NCBI GenBank assembly: GCA_963824755.1
Contig: CAWGQT010000022.1
Location: 22,930 to 86,929 of the forward strand
From: an uncultured Solirubrobacterales bacterium
GTDB lineage: Bacteria > Actinomycetota > Thermoleophilia > Solirubrobacterales > Solirubrobacteraceae
DNA: 64,000 nucleotides
Direction of reading: 5' to 3'
Below the pieces are notes generated by a model. That model made no database searches, was not told where the DNA came from, and worked only from the letters and a program-made list of their open reading frames with translations. Positions 22,998-60,138 of this stretch are shown one piece after another. Positions within the stretch are counted from its first letter, which is position 1. Every line of letters starts with the position of its first letter. A program made the translations under genes and the position numbers.

Positions 22998-23213
22998 GGG
23001 CGGGAGCGATCGTCGGATCCGGGCCGCGGCCGGCCTGAGGCGGTGTCCGATCTCACTCGGCGCAAGTTCACTTCCCCTTATACGGAATCGCCTAAACGGC
23101 GGATCAGCGCGCCCTCGGAGGAGCGTAAGCGGGCGTTGTTCGGGCGCGGTTATTGCGCGGCATTTCCGCTCCCAGGGCTGGTCGAGAAAGCGACGATCGC
23201 GGTTTTCTCGCCC
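22998..23213. ncRNA. Candidate structured ncRNA (6S-like rod)
   Basis: Nested long-range inverted repeats in an intergenic gap: gcgatcgtcg 23006-23015 with cgacgatcgc 23191-23200, gcgcaa/ttgcgc, cgcgccc/gggcgcg, and a less-paired central region. Confidence 0.35.
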
Positions 23214-51702: not shown

Positions 51703-51729
51703 TGATCCGCTTCGCAGCCGGCCGCGTAT
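51703..51729 (+). promoter_or_regulatory. ECF-type promoter motif, copy 1
   Basis: TGATCC-gcttcgcagccggccg-CGTAT, ending 7-10 nt before the NiCoT start. Confidence 0.65.
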
Positions 51730-51738
51730 AGGCCGGTG

Positions 51739-52890
51739 ATGGAAGCTCTCTCGTTGCCGTCGTCGGGCGAGTCGCGGCTGGCGCGAATCAAGGCGTCGAT
51801 GTCGCCGCAGGAGTGGCGGCGGCTCGGCGGAATGGCCGCCGTGATCGCCGGCCTGCACATCCTGGGGTTCGGGCTCCTGATCCTGGTGGTAGCGCCGGAG
51901 CACCTCAAGCTCGGTGCGGCCGGCACGTTCGCGATTGGAACCGGAATTACGGCGTACACACTTGGTATGCGCCACGCGTTCGACGCCGACCACATCTCCG
52001 CGATCGACAACACCACGCGAAAGATGATGGGCGAGGGCAAGCGCCCTTTGAGCGTCGGCTTCTTCTTCTCGCTCGGGCACTCGACGATCGTGTTCGGCCT
52101 GACGTTCCTGCTCGCGATCGGCATCCGCGCGCTGAGCGGCCCCGTTCAGAACAGCCAGTCGACGTTGCACAAGGCGACGAACGTGATCGGGACCACCGTG
52201 TCGGGAGCGTTTCTGTACATCATCGCGATTCTCAACATCCTGATCCTGGTGAGCATCGTCCGGATCTTCTTCGGGATGCGGCGGGGGGCGTACGACGAGC
52301 ACGAGCTCGAGCAACAGCTCAACTCTCGCGGACTGATGAGCCGCTTCTTCGGCAAGCGGCTGAACGCGATCAAGGACCCGTGGCATATGTATCCCATCGG
52401 CATCCTGTTCGGCCTCGGATTCGACACCGCCACCGAGATCGGGCTGCTCGTCCTGGCCGCCGGCGCGGGCGCGGCGGGCCTGCCGTTCTACGCGATCCTC
52501 TGCCTGCCGGTCCTGTTCGCCGCCGGCATGTCATTGCTCGACACGATCGACGGGTCGTTTATGAACTTTGCGTACGGCTGGGCGTTCTCCAAGCCTGTTC
52601 GCAAGGTTTATTACAACATCACGATCACAGGGTTGTCGGTGGTAGTTGCCCTGTTTATCGGAACCTGCGAGCTGTTGGGGCTGCTGGTCCAAAAACTCGG
52701 ACTGCACGGCCCGGTCGCCGGCTGGTTCCAGCACTTCAACATCAACACCGCCGGATTCATCATCGTCGCGATGTTTGTTGGTACCTGGGCTCTCGCACTT
52801 GCGATCTGGCGCTTCGCCAAGATCGAAGAGAAATGGAGCGTCGGCATGCAGCTCGCGGCCACGCGCTCCGGCCGCAAGCAGGACACTTGA
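51739..52890 (+). CDS. HoxN/HupN/NixA (NiCoT) nickel/cobalt permease
   Basis: GMRHAFDADHISAID (HX4DH signature), FFSLGHSTIV, GLGFDTATEI, DTIDG..M..AY.WAF..P.RK.YYN.TIT. Confidence 0.95.
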   Translation: MEALSLPSSGESRLARIKASMSPQEWRRLGGMAAVIAGLHILGFGLLILVVAPEHLKLGAAGTFAIGTGITAYTLGMRHAFDADHISAIDNTTRKMMGEGKRPLSVGFFFSLGHSTIVFGLTFLLAIGIRALSGPVQNSQSTLHKATNVIGTTVSGAFLYIIAILNILILVSIVRIFFGMRRGAYDEHELEQQLNSRGLMSRFFGKRLNAIKDPWHMYPIGILFGLGFDTATEIGLLVLAAGAGAAGLPFYAILCLPVLFAAGMSLLDTIDGSFMNFAYGWAFSKPVRKVYYNITITGLSVVVALFIGTCELLGLLVQKLGLHGPVAGWFQHFNINTAGFIIVAMFVGTWALALAIWRFAKIEEKWSVGMQLAATRSGRKQDT

Positions 52891-52901
52891 GACACTTCCG
52901 T

Positions 52902-52928
52902 TGATCCAAGTCGGCGTGCAGCTCGTAT
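52902..52928 (+). promoter_or_regulatory. ECF-type promoter motif, copy 2
   Basis: TGATCC-aagtcggcgtgcagct-CGTAT upstream of tatA. Confidence 0.65.
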
Positions 52929-52965: not shown

Positions 52966-53205
52966 ATGCTTGGACTTGACAATCCAATTCACATTCTCTT
53001 CCTGCTGGTGATTCTGCTTCTGGTATTCGGCGCCAAGCGGTTGCCGGAGTTGGGACGTTCGCTCGGTTCGGGTCTGCGAGGGTTCAAGGACACGATCAAC
53101 GGCGATCCCGCCCGCCCGGAGCAGCTGACCGCAAACGCCGCGCTGGCGAGCGAGCCGACCTCCGAGTCCCGCGAGAACAGCACCACCGCGAGCCACGCCG
53201 CGTAG
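52966..53205 (+). CDS. tatA: Twin-arginine translocase subunit TatA
   Basis: TM helix, then FGAKRLPELGRSLG.GLRGFK amphipathic helix; RBS ggag. Confidence 0.93.
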   Translation: MLGLDNPIHILFLLVILLLVFGAKRLPELGRSLGSGLRGFKDTINGDPARPEQLTANAALASEPTSESRENSTTASHAA

Positions 53206-53236: not shown

Positions 53237-54223
53237 ATGCGGGCTGCTGCCGTGCTCAGGCCGATCGGCCAGGCCGATCACCTGACCGTCGTCGACCACC
53301 TCGACGAGCTCCGCGCGCGGCTGATCGTCTCGCTACTCGCAGTCGCGGTCGCGTTCGGGCTGTGCTTCTGGCAGAACCACCGGCTGCTGCGTTTGATCAA
53401 CGCCCCGCTCGCGCACCAGACACAACAACAGGTGCGCGATGGGCAAGGCCCGCTGGGAGCCACTTACACTGTCAGCCGCAGCGCGAGGGACGTGGCCGTC
53501 CAGCTGCAGACGGTCGTCGGTCTGCTGGCTGCCGAGCGGGGCCAGCCGGCGGTGTCCAGGACGCTCCGTCAGGTCGACGCGAATCTTGGCCGCGACGTCG
53601 CCCGGCTCTCGGCTCCACCGCCCGGCGACCGTCCGGTGACGCTCGGGATCGGCGAACCGTTCACGACGACCGTCACCGTGTCACTGATCTTCGCGCTGAT
53701 TCTCGCGCTCCCCGTTCTGTTGCTTCAGGCTTACGCATTCTTGATGCCGGCGGCCGACCCGGCACTGCGCCGGCGGATGCGACCGGTACTGCTCGCGATC
53801 CCGATCCTGATGACCGCCGGCGTGACCTTCGGCTACTTCGTCGTCCTGCCCGCGGCTCTGCACTTCTTCCAGAACTTCAACAGCACGCAGTTCAACGTGC
53901 TCGTACAGGCGAGCCAGTACTACAAGTTCGCTGCGACCATCCTGCTCGCCATGGCCCTTCTGTTCCAGATTCCCGTCGTCATACTGGGGATCACGCGAGC
54001 GGGCTTGGTAACCCCTGCACAACTGCGCCGGAATCGGCGCTATGCGCTCGGGGCGTGCGCGTTGCTCGCCGCGGTTCTGCCTGGCGATGTGATCACGATG
54101 CTGCTCGAGATTGCGCCGCTGTACCTGCTGTTCGAAGGCAGTGTCTTGGTAGCGGCCATCGCCGCACGCCGCCGTGGATCTCGCGTCGGTGACACTTCGC
54201 CGACTTCCGTCCCGGCTGGGTGA
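53237..54223 (+). CDS. tatC: Twin-arginine translocase subunit TatC (atypical)
   Basis: HLDELRARL, EPF, P.LL.Q..AF..P, G..FGYFVVLP.AL.FF, FQIP, RRNRRYA, PGD...M. Confidence 0.92.
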   Translation: MRAAAVLRPIGQADHLTVVDHLDELRARLIVSLLAVAVAFGLCFWQNHRLLRLINAPLAHQTQQQVRDGQGPLGATYTVSRSARDVAVQLQTVVGLLAAERGQPAVSRTLRQVDANLGRDVARLSAPPPGDRPVTLGIGEPFTTTVTVSLIFALILALPVLLLQAYAFLMPAADPALRRRMRPVLLAIPILMTAGVTFGYFVVLPAALHFFQNFNSTQFNVLVQASQYYKFAATILLAMALLFQIPVVILGITRAGLVTPAQLRRNRRYALGACALLAAVLPGDVITMLLEIAPLYLLFEGSVLVAAIAARRRGSRVGDTSPTSVPAG

Positions 54224-54247
54224 TCCGTTTTCGCGCGGCATCCGTAT
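54221..54247 (+). promoter_or_regulatory. ECF-type promoter motif, copy 3
   Basis: TGATCC-gttttcgcgcggcatc-CGTAT starting at the tatC stop codon. Confidence 0.65.
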
Positions 54248-54300: not shown

Positions 54301-54630
54301 ATGACCGACGAGCGGAACAGCGGCGGCGGAGTGACGCGGCTGTCGTTCATCAAGGCGGGCGCAGGCGTAGCTGCGGGAGTCGCCGCGGCCAGCGTCCCTG
54401 CCGCAGCCGTGCTTTCCGGGGAGAAGAAGGGCGTTGTTACCTCGCCTTCGTCTTCCGCGCCGAAAGAACCGGTAATGGCGTACGTGCGCGATGCGCAGAA
54501 GGGCGAGGTGACGGTGTTGTCCGGCACCGCCGAGACGACGTATCGCGACCACGGGCTCGTCCGGCGTCTGATGGACGCCGCACCCGAGCCTTCAAGCCTG
54601 AACGGAGGAATCGATGTCATCGCACCGTGA
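54301..54630 (+). CDS. Small protein with Tat-like signal peptide (T-R-L-S-F-I-K)
   Basis: RBS gaaaggag; VTRLSFIK, then Ala-rich h-region and PAAA; overlaps the DUF4331 start by 17 bp. Confidence 0.75.
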   Translation: MTDERNSGGGVTRLSFIKAGAGVAAGVAAASVPAAAVLSGEKKGVVTSPSSSAPKEPVMAYVRDAQKGEVTVLSGTAETTYRDHGLVRRLMDAAPEPSSLNGGIDVIAP

Positions 54631-56014
54631 AGCACCGGAGATCAGCAAGGATCCGGTGGCGGACCACACGGACGTTTATGCGTTCGTCAGTCCCGACCGA
54701 CCGGACACGGTCACGCTGATCAGTAACTTCGTTCCGCTTCAGGATCCCCCTGGCGGACCGAACTTCTTCGAGTTCGGCGACGACGTCCTGTACTCGATCA
54801 ACATCGACAACGACGGCGACGGGGTCCCGGAGATCTCCTACGTCTTCAGGTTCCAGACCCTCCTGCGTGACACAGAGACGTTCCTGTACAACACGGGTCC
54901 GATCACCTCGCTCGGCAGCAAGAACTGGAACAAGCGTCAGTTCTATTCGGTCACGCGTGTAACGGGTGGCGACACGACAAAGTTCGGGAACGGCGGCCGC
55001 GGGCTGAGGGCAAAGGTGCTCGGCACCAATCTGCAGTGCCCGCCGTGCAACATTGGGCCACGCTCGACGCCGAACTACCCGGCACTCGGTGCTGCCGCCG
55101 TTCACACCCTATCGGGCGGCGTCAAGGTGTTCGCCGGTCAGCGGCTGGAGGGGTTCTACGTCGACCTCGGAGCGATCTTCGATCTCGGCGACCTGCGCCC
55201 GTTCCAGCACCTGCACCTGATCCCCAGCGCCGACGCGGTGGGGGTTGACGCGACCAAGACGCTCAATGTCCACACGATCGCGATTCAGGTACCGATCTCA
55301 GACCTGACCGCAAGCAGGTCGGTGCCAAAGAATCCGATGAGCAAGAACGCGGTGATCGGCGTGTGGTCCTCGTCCAGCCGCCGCAAGGTGCGGATGCTGA
55401 ACGGCAACGGCGTTCCGTCTGAGTCCGGGCCCTGGGTTCAGGTCTCACGACTCGGCAATCCGCTGTTCAACGAGGTGATCGTGCCGCTCGGCGACAAGGA
55501 TCGCTGGAACGCCCTGCCGCCGGCTGCTGACAAGCAGTTCGTCAAGTACGTGGAGAAGCCCGAGCTCGCCGGCCTGCTGCCGGTTCTGTACCCGGGCGTG
55601 TTCCCGAACTTGGCGAAGTTGAACAAGCCGCGCGCCGATCTGGTGGCGGTGCTGCTGACAGGCATTCCGTCCGGCATCGTTCCCGGGTTCCAGAACTACA
55701 CGGGCAAGACGCTGGCCGACCAGCTGCGGCTCAACCTCGCGATCCCGCCGACGAAGTCCAAGCCGAGCCTGTATGGCCTGCTCGGCGGCGACGCCGCCGG
55801 TTTCCCCAACGGGCGGCGGGTGTTCGACGACATCGTCAGCATCGAGCTGCGAGCGATTGCCGGCGTCACCTACGCACTGGTCGACAAGTCCTTCAAGCCC
55901 GATGGAGCGGCGTCGGAGCTGACGGAGGGACTGACACCCGGTGCGGGCCGCTACCAGAGCACGTTCCCGTATCTCGGCACGCCGAGGAGCGGGTTCGACA
56001 CGCCGTCCAGTTAG
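54614..56014 (+). CDS. DUF4331 domain protein (no signal peptide, N-terminus MSSHREAP)
   Basis: SSHREAP.I..DP.AD.TD.YAF, F.F.DDV.Y.I.IDN.GDG, FAGQR...F.VDLG.IFD, QVSRLGNPLFNEV, GFPNGRR..DD. Confidence 0.88.
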   Translation: MSSHREAPEISKDPVADHTDVYAFVSPDRPDTVTLISNFVPLQDPPGGPNFFEFGDDVLYSINIDNDGDGVPEISYVFRFQTLLRDTETFLYNTGPITSLGSKNWNKRQFYSVTRVTGGDTTKFGNGGRGLRAKVLGTNLQCPPCNIGPRSTPNYPALGAAAVHTLSGGVKVFAGQRLEGFYVDLGAIFDLGDLRPFQHLHLIPSADAVGVDATKTLNVHTIAIQVPISDLTASRSVPKNPMSKNAVIGVWSSSSRRKVRMLNGNGVPSESGPWVQVSRLGNPLFNEVIVPLGDKDRWNALPPAADKQFVKYVEKPELAGLLPVLYPGVFPNLAKLNKPRADLVAVLLTGIPSGIVPGFQNYTGKTLADQLRLNLAIPPTKSKPSLYGLLGGDAAGFPNGRRVFDDIVSIELRAIAGVTYALVDKSFKPDGAASELTEGLTPGAGRYQSTFPYLGTPRSGFDTPSS

Positions 56015-56085: not shown

Positions 56086-56481
56086 ATGGGCCACCAGCAC
56101 TCCGACCACCTCCACGATCACGACCACCCGCACGCACACCCGGTCGAGAACTACTCGGCGCGAAAGCACCCGGAGTTCGTCGTGCTCGACATCGGCGAGG
56201 AGCTCGGCGCTCTGATCATCTACGCCGACCCTGAGATGCACGGCCGCGAGATCGAGATCAGCCCTGCCGGACGCGACGGTGACCGCAGCCACAAGGAGGT
56301 GCTCGAGCGAAGCGAAGGAGGCCACCCGGCGTTCACGGCGGTGTTCGACGCGCTACCTGCCGGCGCCTACACCCTATGGGTCGACGACAGACCCCGTGCC
56401 TGGAACGTGAACATCGACTGTGGCGCGATCGCCCAGCTCGACTGGAGGAGCGCACGGGCCACCTCCCCCTCCGCGGCCTGA
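56086..56481 (+). CDS. His-rich small protein, putative metal chaperone
   Basis: 8 His in the first 18 residues (MGHQHSDHLHDHDHPHAH), then VVLDIG.ELGALIIY..PE..GREIEISP and AVFDALPAG.YTLW. Confidence 0.75.
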   Translation: MGHQHSDHLHDHDHPHAHPVENYSARKHPEFVVLDIGEELGALIIYADPEMHGREIEISPAGRDGDRSHKEVLERSEGGHPAFTAVFDALPAGAYTLWVDDRPRAWNVNIDCGAIAQLDWRSARATSPSAA

Positions 56482-57947: not shown

Positions 57948-58049
57948 CTCGCTTCAAGCGGTCGTCGACCAAATGGCAAGCAGAAGCCCGCGTACCAGTC
58001 GTACTCTCGACTATGAGCGCTCGCGGACTCCACCACATCCGCCGTTTGT

Positions 58050-59054
58050 CGGGAAGTACTGGCGCAGCAGCCCGTTGGTGTTCTCATTGGTGCCGCGCTG
58101 CCACGGACTGTGTGGATCGCAGAAGTACACCGGCAGGCCGGTCTCGATCCGCAGCTGGGCGTGTTGGGCCATCTCGGTGCACTGGTCCCAGGTCAGCGAG
58201 CGGCGCAGCTGCTCAGGCAGCGTGACGATCGTCCTGGCGATCGCGTCGCGGACCGCCTCGGCGCCGTGCCCCGTTAGCGCGGGGCCGTCCTTTACTCGCG
58301 GCGCTTGGCCGGTCATCGGCGGGAGGTAGAGCAGCATCGTAAAGCGGGTTGAGCGCTCCACCAGCGTGCCGATCGCCGAGCTCCTCGCTCCGATGATGAG
58401 GTCGCCTTCCCAATGGCCGGGAACCGCCCTGTCCTGGGCTTCGGCGGGGCGTTGGCTGATCATCACCTCGTCGCTGACGAACCCGCGACCGCGACCGCTG
58501 GTGCGAGCTCTCGGGACCCGCAACGCCCGCCCGGTCCGCAGACAGGCCGTCAGCTCACGCCGCAACGCGCCACGCCCCTGAACGTACAGCGACTGGTAGA
58601 TCGCCTCGTGCGAGATACGCATTGACTCATCATCGGGGAACTCCAAGCGCAGGCGATTGGAAATCTGCTCAGGGCTCCACGCCCTCGCCCAGCGCCGATC
58701 CTTGCGCAGACCGTGACGCCGCCCGATCCACCTCACCCCAGGACCGTCGAGAGCCGTCCCATCGGGCCGCTTGACAGCTCCCGACAGACGGTCCTGCACA
58801 TACCGTCGCAGCCCGGCGTTCACGACCAGCTTCGCCGGCTTCGCACGCGAGCGCGCCGGTCCGCGTACCGCTGCGCCGAGCTCGCCCGATACTCAACGAC
58901 GCCGCCACACCTCACGACGTTCCGACGCAACTCACGAGAGATCGTCGACGGCGAACGCCCGAGCTGACGAGCGATCCCCCGCACCCCACACCCCCCAGCG
59001 CGCAGGATCGCGATCTCCTCCCGCTCAGCGAACGACAGATAACGCCCCGACAGA
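58050..59054 (-). mobile_element. IS30-family transposase remnant, truncated at both ends and frameshifted
   Basis: LSFAEREEIA, RSPSTISRELRRN, WSPEQIS.RL, ISHEAIY, PGHWEGDLI, LTWDQ, QRGTNENTNGLLRQYFP then breaks off; frameshift near 58847. Confidence 0.9.
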
Positions 59055-60060
59055 TTTGCGTAGTTGTCGGTTCAACGCCTCGATCGCGTTCGTCGTGTAA
59101 ATCACGCGACGGACCTCAGGCTCGAACTGAAGGAATGGTGTGACGTGCTCCCAGGCGTCCTGCCAGGCTTGAACGATCGGCGGGAACCGCTTGCCCCACT
59201 TCTCATCGAACGCCTCGAGCGCCGCCCAGGCAGCGTCCTGGTCGATCGCGGTGTAGATCGGCTTGAGGTCCTTGGCGACCTGGTCGAACTCGCGGCGCGG
59301 GACGTAGCGCAATGACCGTCGGATGAGATGCACGATGCATGTCTGCACGACGGTCTGCGGGAAGATCGCCTCGATCGCTTCGGGAAACCCGGTCAGCCCG
59401 TCGACGCAGCAGATCAGGATGTCTCTGACGCCGCGGTGTTTGAGTTCTGAGAGCACTTGCATCCAGAACTTCGCGCCCTCTGTCTCTTGGAACCACATGC
59501 CGAGCACGTCGCGCTCGCCGCTGACACGGACGCCGAGCGCGAGGTAGCACGCCTTGCGCTGCACGCTGCCGCCCTCCTTGACCTTGAGCACGAACGCGTC
59601 GAGGAACACGACCGGGTACACGTCGTCGAGCGGTCGCTGCTGCCACGCGCGGGCGTCTTCCATGACGGCGTCGGTACGCGGCTGATCAGATCCCGGCCGA
59701 CGTTGACGCCGTAGAGCTCGCGCAGGTAGCGCTCGATATCCCGCGTCGAGAGCCCACGGCTGTAGAGCGCGAGGATCTTCTCGTCGAACCCCTCAAAGCG
59801 CCGCTGACGCTTTCTGACCAGTTGCGGCTCAAAGCTGCCATCGCGATCGCGAGGCGCCTTGATCGACACCGGCCCGTGCTCGGTTATGAGCGTCTTCGGC
59901 TTGCCCTTCCCGTTGCGCGTGTTCCCCGTCCCGCCAGGCGGCTCCTGATGCGCCTCATAGCCGAGATGGTCGGTCAGCTCGACCTCCAGCGCCCGCTCGA
60001 CCAACCGCTTGGTCAACTCGCCGAACACGCCACCACGGCCGAAAATCTCCTCCTGGCCTC
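59055..60060 (-). mobile_element. IS256-family transposase remnant, truncated and frameshifted
   Basis: LTKRLVERALE.ELTDHLGY, PRDRDGSFEP, YSRGLSTRDI, VFLDA, DGLTGFPEAI, QTCIVHLIR, IYTTNAIE.LNRQLRK then breaks off; frameshift near 59676. Confidence 0.9.
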
Positions 60061-60138
60061 TGCCCGGATCCGTACTGAACCCGGAACCGCAGTACATGCG
60101 CGCCTGGTCGATACCAGGCGGTTAGGTGAGCCTCTTGC

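Follow-up and report, generated by a model that had tools for sequence, protein, structure and literature searches.

We analysed a 64,000-nucleotide stretch of DNA from an uncultured Solirubrobacterales bacterium (contig CAWGQT010000022.1, positions 22,930 to 86,929; hereafter the window), which contains two overlapping genes encoding a small protein with a signal peptide of the twin-arginine translocation (Tat) type and a protein of the DUF4331 family with no signal of its own (Table 1). We call the small protein the carrier, after the role proposed for it below. Its open reading frame (ORF) is preceded, 5-6 nt 5' of the start, by an AAAGGAG ribosome-binding site. The DUF4331 gene lies in a different frame and overlaps the signal-bearing small gene by 17 nt, as a preliminary description of this DNA had claimed, and an identical -17 overlap is found in three other loci (L089, L090 and L150). 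That description also gave the DUF4331 gene a ribosome-binding site of its own, embedded in the overlap; a GGAGGA is indeed present within the 3'-terminal part of the small gene, spaced 4 nt from the DUF4331 ATG, but it lies just upstream of the overlap and not in it.

The start of the DUF4331 protein can be assigned from the reading frame. A stop at 54599-54601 is followed by four codons that are not start codons (ACG GAG GAA TCG) and then by the ATG, and because these four codons are all that lie between stop and ATG, Met-Ser-Ser-His is the sole possible start; the protein is thus signal-less and opens Ser-Ser-His, as first described. It matches the PF14224 (DUF4331) profile over its full length and above the gathering score (E = 4.1e-139; 464.9 bits, the cut-off being 27), with profile positions 1-421 aligned to residues 2-457, so that profile position 1 corresponds to residue 2.

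Table 1. Features of the window discussed in the text.
Feature	Position	Strand	Remarks
TGATCC-N16-CGTAT promoter-like box, fourth copy	23080-23106	-	far upstream
TGATCC-N16-CGTAT promoter-like box	51703-51729	+	upstream of nicT
NicT/NiCoT-family nickel (cobalt) permease gene	51736-52890	+	Pfam NicO E = 4.6e-98; NCBIfam NicT E = 1.3e-163, above curated cut-off
TGATCC-N16-CGTAT promoter-like box	52902-52928	+	upstream of tatA
TatA-family subunit gene	52966-53205	+	Pfam TatA_B_E E = 2.3e-16; TIGR01411 above cut-off
Second TatC gene of the genome	53237-54223	+	PF00902 E = 1.3e-51
TGATCC-N16-CGTAT promoter-like box	54221-54247	+	54 nt 5' of carrier ATG
Small ORF (carrier)	54301-54630	+	ATG 54301, TGA 54628-54630; 109 aa
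GGAGGA ribosome-binding site of DUF4331 gene	54604-54609	+	within 3' end of carrier gene
DUF4331 gene	54614-56014	+	466 aa; frame differs from small ORF
Overlap of carrier and DUF4331 genes	54614-54630	+	17 nt, two different frames
Codons for Ser2-Ser3-His4 of DUF4331	54617-54625	+	
CPPC motif in DUF4331	55037-55048	+	signal-less clade only
Third module member gene	56086-56481	+	131 aa; N-terminal tail with 8 His in 22 residues, then beta-sandwich domain

The division into two genes is conserved. The start (M/V)SSHREAP is found in 119 of the 120 best DUF4331 homologue clusters, which come from Solirubrobacterales metagenome bins at 74-99% identity (some of the starts follow a short gene-caller extension), and the remaining cluster is a partial sequence. 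Among 80 metagenome loci retrieved with the DUF4331 profile, the protein is signal-less in 73, with a start codon directly before S-S-H, or T-S-H in a few. Upstream genes were counted in the 69 loci having at least 330 nt of upstream DNA, and in 66 of these DUF4331 is closely preceded by a small ORF that encodes a Tat-type motif and a hydrophobic stretch and ends -17 to +219 nt before the DUF4331 start. This adjacency holds across 52-76% identity, and in loci that BLAST missed an ORF of this kind is still present and has a beta-beta-beta-alpha tail as in the others. One genome has two full modules in tandem (L088, 3582-8374), the first in the order carrier, DUF4331, third protein and the second in the order DUF4331, carrier, third protein. 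The preliminary description had raised the question of whether homologues form a single fused ORF; none of the 150 best representatives has a fused carrier-DUF4331 form, and two long N-terminal extensions among them look like wrong-frame gene calls.

The carrier has in its n-region the motif T-R-L-S-F-I-K (54334-54354), followed by a Gly/Ala-rich h-region and P-A-A-A at residues 33-36, with cleavage predicted after Ala36. By its sequence this N-terminus has the layout of a Tat signal in which the second arginine is replaced by leucine. The predicted mature part, only about 70 aa, consists of a Ser/Pro-rich linker and a conserved domain of approximately 45 aa (PVMAYVRD..GEVTV..G..ETTYRD..L..RL..AAP). 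There are 296 carrier homologues at E <= 0.001, of about 110 aa each. Residues R13, L14, S15, F16 and K18 are invariant among the aligned homologues, which represent the subclade of the window, and more distant homologues have canonical motifs: SRRSF[MLV]K (SRRSFMK, SRRSFVK), TRRAFVK, SRRRFIR and similar. Across the 66 partner loci the twin arginine (RR) is present in 58 and the RL form of the window in five. The best matches of the carrier profile in PDB, all weak, are the Tat leaders of NicA2 and NapA, and no Pfam family, MelC1 included, matches the carrier at E <= 5 apart from a chance-level match to Vault_4. The signal that had been called Tat-like therefore belongs to a true Tat signal family, with S/T-R-R-x-F-L-K in most homologues.

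The N-termini of signal-bearing relatives were compared with those of the signal-less proteins. A HMMER scan gave 5,659 DUF4331 clusters at E <= 0.001 (clustered at 50% identity, the family has 5,600 clusters or more), and the N-termini of the 150 best representatives were sorted. Intact N-termini are present in 122 representatives, 33 of which are signal-less (MSSH) while 89 have a signal peptide ending directly before S-S-H. In these 89 the residue at His-3 is Ala in 84, Gly in four and Ser in one, that at His-5 is restricted to A, V, T, S, G or L, and that at His-4 is unconstrained, with E, R, K, D and N among the residues found. This pattern corresponds to the classical -3/-1 rule and predicts cleavage by signal peptidase I as A-x-A↓S-S-H; we place the cleavage before S-S-H because cleavage before the His would leave the -5 position unconstrained. 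Only seven of the 89 carry an RR motif, and most of the signal-bearing relatives are therefore predicted to be Sec substrates. It is thus unlikely that the signal of the carrier derives literally from a signal of DUF4331 itself, as the carrier also has a domain of its own. The preliminary idea of a signal peptide split off as a separate carrier subunit holds in part: a separate signal-bearing partner is conserved, but it has its own domain of about 45 aa and the signals of the relatives are mostly of the Sec type.

Given cleavage of the relatives at A-x-A↓SSH, both export modes would mature to the same Ser-Ser-His N-terminus, with the His at the third predicted mature position in 33 of 33 signal-less and 89 of 89 signal-bearing representatives. 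The comparison indicates that an identical mature N-terminus would be made by signal peptidase outside the cytoplasm or by removal of Met inside it. Ser at P1' makes a good substrate for methionine aminopeptidase and favours Met removal. When 75 diverse members of the family are aligned, S3, H4, A7 and P8 are invariant and S2 and E6 nearly so; H4 is the sole invariant His in this alignment, which has no other family-wide invariant His or Cys. A single M-S-x-H start would be expected by chance in about 1 in 100 proteins, but the conservation in the close clusters and the 122 representatives shows that this start is not a chance occurrence. In a tree of the sequences from the His onward, a single clade holds 12 of the 13 signal-less representatives, on a branch with a Shimodaira-Hasegawa-like approximate likelihood ratio test (SH-aLRT) support of 100.

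A free N-terminus held at a fixed distance from the His argues for selection on the N-terminus itself and fits the needs of an amino-terminal Cu(II)/Ni(II)-binding (ATCUN) site. Such a site is formed by the alpha-amine, two backbone amides and the imidazole of His3, and requires the amine to be free. The protein has the sequence features of such a site, with His third in the mature chain and a residue other than Pro second (M↓S-S-H), and the ATCUN reading put forward in the preliminary description gains strong comparative support from the same predicted Ser-Ser-His end in the signal-bearing relatives. We consider that the N-terminus of DUF4331 has an even chance of being a metal site.

An AlphaFold2 model of the DUF4331 protein, made with the 75-sequence alignment, has a predicted local distance difference test score (pLDDT) of 94 and a predicted template modelling score (pTM) of 0.93, with residues 1-3 below a pLDDT of 50. 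A Foldseek search of PDB with this model found no match at E <= 0.001 (best TM-scores approximately 0.1-0.16), and a phmmer sequence search of PDB likewise found none, so by the model the protein would have a fold with no solved relative. No paper naming DUF4331 or PF14224 was found in the library searched. Other conserved residues are D20, Y22, D190, R340 and R401. Of 119 close homologues 114 have the CPPC motif, as do 44 of the 66 metagenome loci with a readable motif; none of the 46 signal-bearing members having the surrounding PPxN motif has it. The gain of CPPC with cytoplasmic folding fits, as circumstantial evidence, thiolate ligands or some other feature that would form in the reducing cytoplasm.

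The order of genes in the window is NicT, TatA, TatC, carrier, DUF4331 and a third protein of 131 aa. The promoter-like sequence TGATCC-N16-CGTAT occurs in four exact copies in the window against 0.53 expected by chance, and a single copy lies upstream of the overlapping carrier and DUF4331 genes. NicT is also beside the carrier and DUF4331 pair in five other loci: L004, where the order is TatA, carrier, DUF4331, third protein and NicT; L010 and L011, where it is carrier, DUF4331, third protein, TatA, TatC and NicT; and L006 and L007. Across the 80 metagenome loci NicT is present in nine, TatA in eight and TatC in three, and the third protein lies directly 3' of the signal-less DUF4331 gene in 48 of 59 informative loci. 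On this pattern of gene order we take the carrier, DUF4331 and the third protein as the core module, and NicT and TatAC, those of the window included, as lineage-specific additions.

The third protein has no signal peptide and no Pfam or NCBIfam family match. Its AlphaFold2 model has a pLDDT of 84, and a fold search with it gave only generic beta-sandwich matches with E of approximately 0.01. The invariant residues are G37, G41, A42, E55, H69 and R75, H69 being the one invariant His, and two Glu are conserved. His-rich tails or internal His-rich loops are found in some homologues only, and many have none; in the tandem modules of L088, only the third protein of module 2 has a His-rich tail. 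In L124, L127, L160 and L162 the His-rich stretch is in an internal loop, e.g. HDHDHDHGPDHDHSHE, and not N-terminal.

Sequence comparison establishes the gene anatomy, the conserved split, the Tat motif of the carrier, the common predicted mature N-terminus and the recurrent neighbours; from these we infer removal of Met, binding and identity of a metal, a physical complex, co-export and the place of loading. As in Tat hitchhiker or caddie systems, the DUF4331 cargo has no signal although its relatives are exported, and the gene of a signal-bearing partner adjoins it in 66 of 69 loci. We think it likely that the pair is a carrier-cargo export unit. That the genes at 54301-56014 encode a two-part exported metalloprotein, loaded with metal in the cytoplasm and hitchhiking on the carrier through Tat, seems to us evenly balanced, and loading with nickel in the cytoplasm is a tentative proposal that we hold to be somewhat doubtful.

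In the mechanism that we propose, methionine aminopeptidase would expose the Ser-Ser-His of the signal-less DUF4331 protein in the cytoplasm. The free alpha-amine, the two following amides and His3 would then form a square-planar Ni(II)/Cu(II) site of the ATCUN type, or, alternatively, the amine and His might form a chelate to which further conserved residues contribute the remaining ligands. Metal insertion in the signal-less clade would take place in the cytoplasm, perhaps with assistance from the partly His-rich beta-sandwich protein, and the most probable metal is nickel supplied by a co-regulated NicT. The small folded domain of the carrier would bind the DUF4331 protein, the Tat signal of the carrier, here the derived single-arginine TRLSFIK, would lead, and the folded and loaded complex would cross the membrane through Tat, hitchhiking on that signal. 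An N-terminal signal and a free-amine site formed before export exclude each other, and placing the signal on a partner would therefore resolve the conflict. Nickel is suggested as the metal by NicT and the His-rich third protein, with copper as the alternative.

Several observations weigh against this mechanism. The signal in the window has no second arginine, and we assume that it is competent for export. The nickel link is partial, as NicT is found in only nine of the 80 loci and in three of the 23 loci of at least 9 kb, and the His-rich stretches are limited to some homologues of the third protein. Signal-bearing relatives mostly adjoin genes for an extracytoplasmic function (ECF) sigma and anti-sigma factor and a tetratricopeptide repeat (TPR) protein, with NicO in one of three informative loci. 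SSHREAP is conserved far more tightly than an ATCUN site needs, so that a role beyond that of a flexible metal-binding tail is probable for this segment; in known ATCUN sites positions 1 and 2 are free to vary. Acetylation of an N-terminal Ser, which is common in actinobacteria, would block the site.

The pair might instead be exported with the flow of metal reversed, the DUF4331 protein capturing Ni(II) or Cu(II) outside the cell and handing it to NicT like a substrate-binding protein; in that case the sole reason for the Tat route would be that folding, or formation of the CPPC site, takes place in the cytoplasm in this clade. Most family members are predicted to be exported by Sec, so that any metal they hold would be acquired outside the cytoplasm, NicT/NicO genes adjoin both signal-less and signal-bearing members, and the affinity of ATCUN sites for Ni(II) and Cu(II) is, by established chemistry, high enough for scavenging. 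We nevertheless regard capture as unlikely, since it leaves unexplained both why the protein would lose its own signal while the N-terminus stays exactly the same and why a cytoplasmic, partly His-rich third protein is found with the signal-less clade only. We also know of no NiCoT permease that uses a binding protein.

A second rival is that the Ser-Ser-His end is catalytic or structural and not a metal site, acting for example as an N-terminal Ser nucleophile with its own amine (the logic of N-terminal nucleophile (Ntn) hydrolases), as a Ser/His pair, or as a free end that plugs the fold. The invariance or near-invariance of S2, S3, H4, E6, A7 and P8 goes far past what the X-X-His rule asks for, the conserved D20, Y22, D190, R340 and R401 would suit an enzyme active site, and the family has no further invariant His or Cys that could serve as a ligand. 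Set against these points are the recurrence of metal-related neighbours (NicT and the His-rich tails and loops of the third protein), the low pLDDT of residues 1-3, which indicates that they are not packed, and the placement of the His at exactly mature position 3 in 122 of 122 representatives, which is the ATCUN geometry. On balance we judge a non-metal role improbable.

It is very unlikely that the two genes are functionally independent, with a cytoplasmic DUF4331 protein and a separate exported or membrane-anchored small protein. Such a reading can appeal to the inferred nature of the complex and to the non-canonical single-arginine signal in the window. It must contend with an adjacency kept in 66 of 69 loci at 52-76% identity and also in L088 with the order reversed, with the export of the rest of the DUF4331 family, with the recruitment of TatA/TatC genes to the cluster in several lineages, and with a mature small protein of approximately 70 aa that has no recognisable function of its own. 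Finally, an assembly or sequencing frameshift that cut one signal-bearing DUF4331 gene in two, which the overlap of two ORFs in different frames might suggest, can be dismissed, as the same split recurs with varying spacers in more than 100 independent clusters and 66 loci, signal-bearing DUF4331 proteins have no counterpart of the conserved domain in the small protein, and none of the 150 best representatives is fused.

The genome has two TatC genes, and the housekeeping copy, on contig C32, keeps a Glu at the position equivalent to E103 of E. coli TatC. The window copy matches the TatC profile, keeps the equivalents of E15 (Glu24) and F94 (Phe168) and has the HLDELR and AYAF motifs, but departs from a canonical TatC in having Leu177 (codon 53765-53767) at the E103 position. 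Glu or Asp occupies this position in 26 of 26 housekeeping-type TatCs of the order. The window copy belongs to a clade of second TatC copies from its genus and relatives of that genus (loci L014-L017 and L058-L066 besides the window), and in nine of ten paralogues at least 65% identical to the window copy the Glu is absent (L, Q, Q, Q, A, Q, Q, R, Q). In the structure of an E. coli TatBC-substrate complex the second arginine of the signal forms a salt bridge with E103 of TatC (PMC13323110). The carrier signal of the window has Leu at the very arginine position that pairs with E103, and the change of R to L in the signal and of Glu to Leu in TatC looks compensatory at this locus, judged from the two sequences.

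Strict co-evolution of the two changes is not supported as a rule across genomes. R-L carriers are present in the genomes of L004, L006 and L007, which have Glu-type TatCs only; in G225 the carrier is of the R-R form and the adjacent TatC of the Gln type; and the E103-less paralogue is also found in sister genomes that have no DUF4331. A second Tat system that is less strict about the second arginine, or recognises it differently, is a possible interpretation.

In the sister genomes with no DUF4331, the paralogue TatA-TatC pair lies amid Ferritin_2 genes, and seven of the eight Ferritin_2 proteins examined have R-G, R-A, R-S, R-K or R-L instead of R-R.

A TatC paralogue with similar losses is known from haloarchaea, where TatCt, which has neither F94 nor E103, was interpreted as binding-inactive (PMC13673990). 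Both have lost the glutamate partner of the second arginine in the signal. They differ in that the two TatC halves of the haloarchaeal protein lack F94 as well as E103, whereas the window TatC is a single six-helix protein that keeps the F94 and E15 equivalents and, unlike TatCt, belongs to a bacterial paralogue clade in Solirubrobacterales.

Our most far-reaching proposal, which is speculative and unlikely to be right as a whole, is that DUF4331 is a new fold of extracytoplasmic metalloprotein whose site lies on the processed N-terminus (alpha-amine and His3), that one actinobacterial clade moved the signal to a Tat carrier to allow loading with nickel inside the cell, and that in the genus of the window this clade is served by an E103-less second Tat system accepting single-arginine signals (TRLSFIK here; R-G, R-A, R-K and R-L on the ferritin-like neighbours in sister genomes).

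The closest known parallel to the pair is in Streptomyces, where MelC1, which has a Tat signal, carries the signal-less tyrosinase MelC2, aids the insertion of copper into it and is co-secreted with it (PMC2758597). MelC1 is required for the metal to be inserted. Both are two-gene operons in which a gene for a small protein with a Tat signal, in the window of the single-arginine form, is upstream of that for a signal-less metalloprotein, a putative one in our case. The carrier has no sequence relation to MelC1, the cargo is a DUF4331 protein of unsolved fold where MelC2 is a type-3 copper protein, the site presumed here is N-terminal, and the pair comes with a third protein and a nickel permease. 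We take a Tat hitchhiker of the MelC1/MelC2 kind to be the best-supported reading of the pair.

In [NiFe]-hydrogenase a signal-less, nickel-loaded subunit is exported folded on a partner with a Tat signal, according to the work of Rodrigue et al. 1999 as it is cited in PMC13323110. The likeness is in the signal-less cargo on a Tat-signal partner and, presumably here, in cytoplasmic nickel loading; the differences are that there is no homology, that the carrier is a 70-aa domain with no Fe-S clusters, and that the cluster has no Hyp-type maturation genes. The hydrogenase system also includes nickel supply by NiCoT and His-rich accessory proteins.

Known ATCUN sites include Asp-Ala-His of serum albumin and Asp-Ser-His of histatin-5, and like these the Ser-Ser-His end has a predicted free N-terminus, His3 and no Pro2, with a site that arises only after N-terminal processing. 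It differs in that positions 1 and 2 and the next four residues are near-invariant, which makes it probable that the segment belongs to a larger structured site. In nickel superoxide dismutase (NiSOD) the Ni-hook needs an N-terminal amine exposed by the SodX protease, and a gene for a NiCoT-family permease is often nearby. NiSOD thus resembles the DUF4331 protein in having a nickel site, putative in the latter, on a processed N-terminal alpha-amine and in its link to a NiCoT permease, but it is cytoplasmic, uses His1, Cys2 and Cys6, and has no sequence or fold relation to DUF4331.

Each of the three elements, Tat hitchhiking, caddie proteins and ATCUN sites, was known before. What is new is their proposed combination in an unrelated, very large family with an unsolved fold, together with the module of carrier, cargo and beta-sandwich protein and the comparative evidence for a processed N-terminus as a conserved functional element. 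A mature Ser-Ser-His fixed by either processing route gives a first testable functional handle on DUF4331, and the two export modes form a natural experiment that argues that the free amino end is itself functional. If correct, this would be a second, unrelated case of the MelC1/MelC2 kind and would show that a separate carrier is a general answer to the conflict between an N-terminal signal and an N-terminal metal site that has to receive its metal ahead of export. The high-confidence model with no neighbour in PDB makes DUF4331 a worthwhile structural target, and the E103-less TatC paralogue could be used to gauge the real strictness of the twin-arginine rule.

Approximately 1.5 kb past the cluster, at 58011-60097, are IS30-like and IS256/mutator-like transposase genes, the latter apparently split in two ORFs. 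The source genome bin is 6.4 Mb with 4.8% contamination, compared with 3.2-4.9 Mb for others of the genus. Eight same-genus genomes were searched; the carrier was found in none examined and a full-length DUF4331 in only two. The cluster may have been acquired horizontally, or the contig may be mis-binned.

Among loci of the signal-bearing relatives, L084, L085 and L170 have a signal-bearing DUF4331 gene followed by a gene for a TPR protein of about 400-460 aa. The flanking genes encode an ECF sigma factor with an RskA-like or ChrR-like (cupin) anti-sigma factor, and a NicO-family gene is present in L084. This arrangement suggests that the DUF4331 family as a whole is under control of the envelope-stress type.

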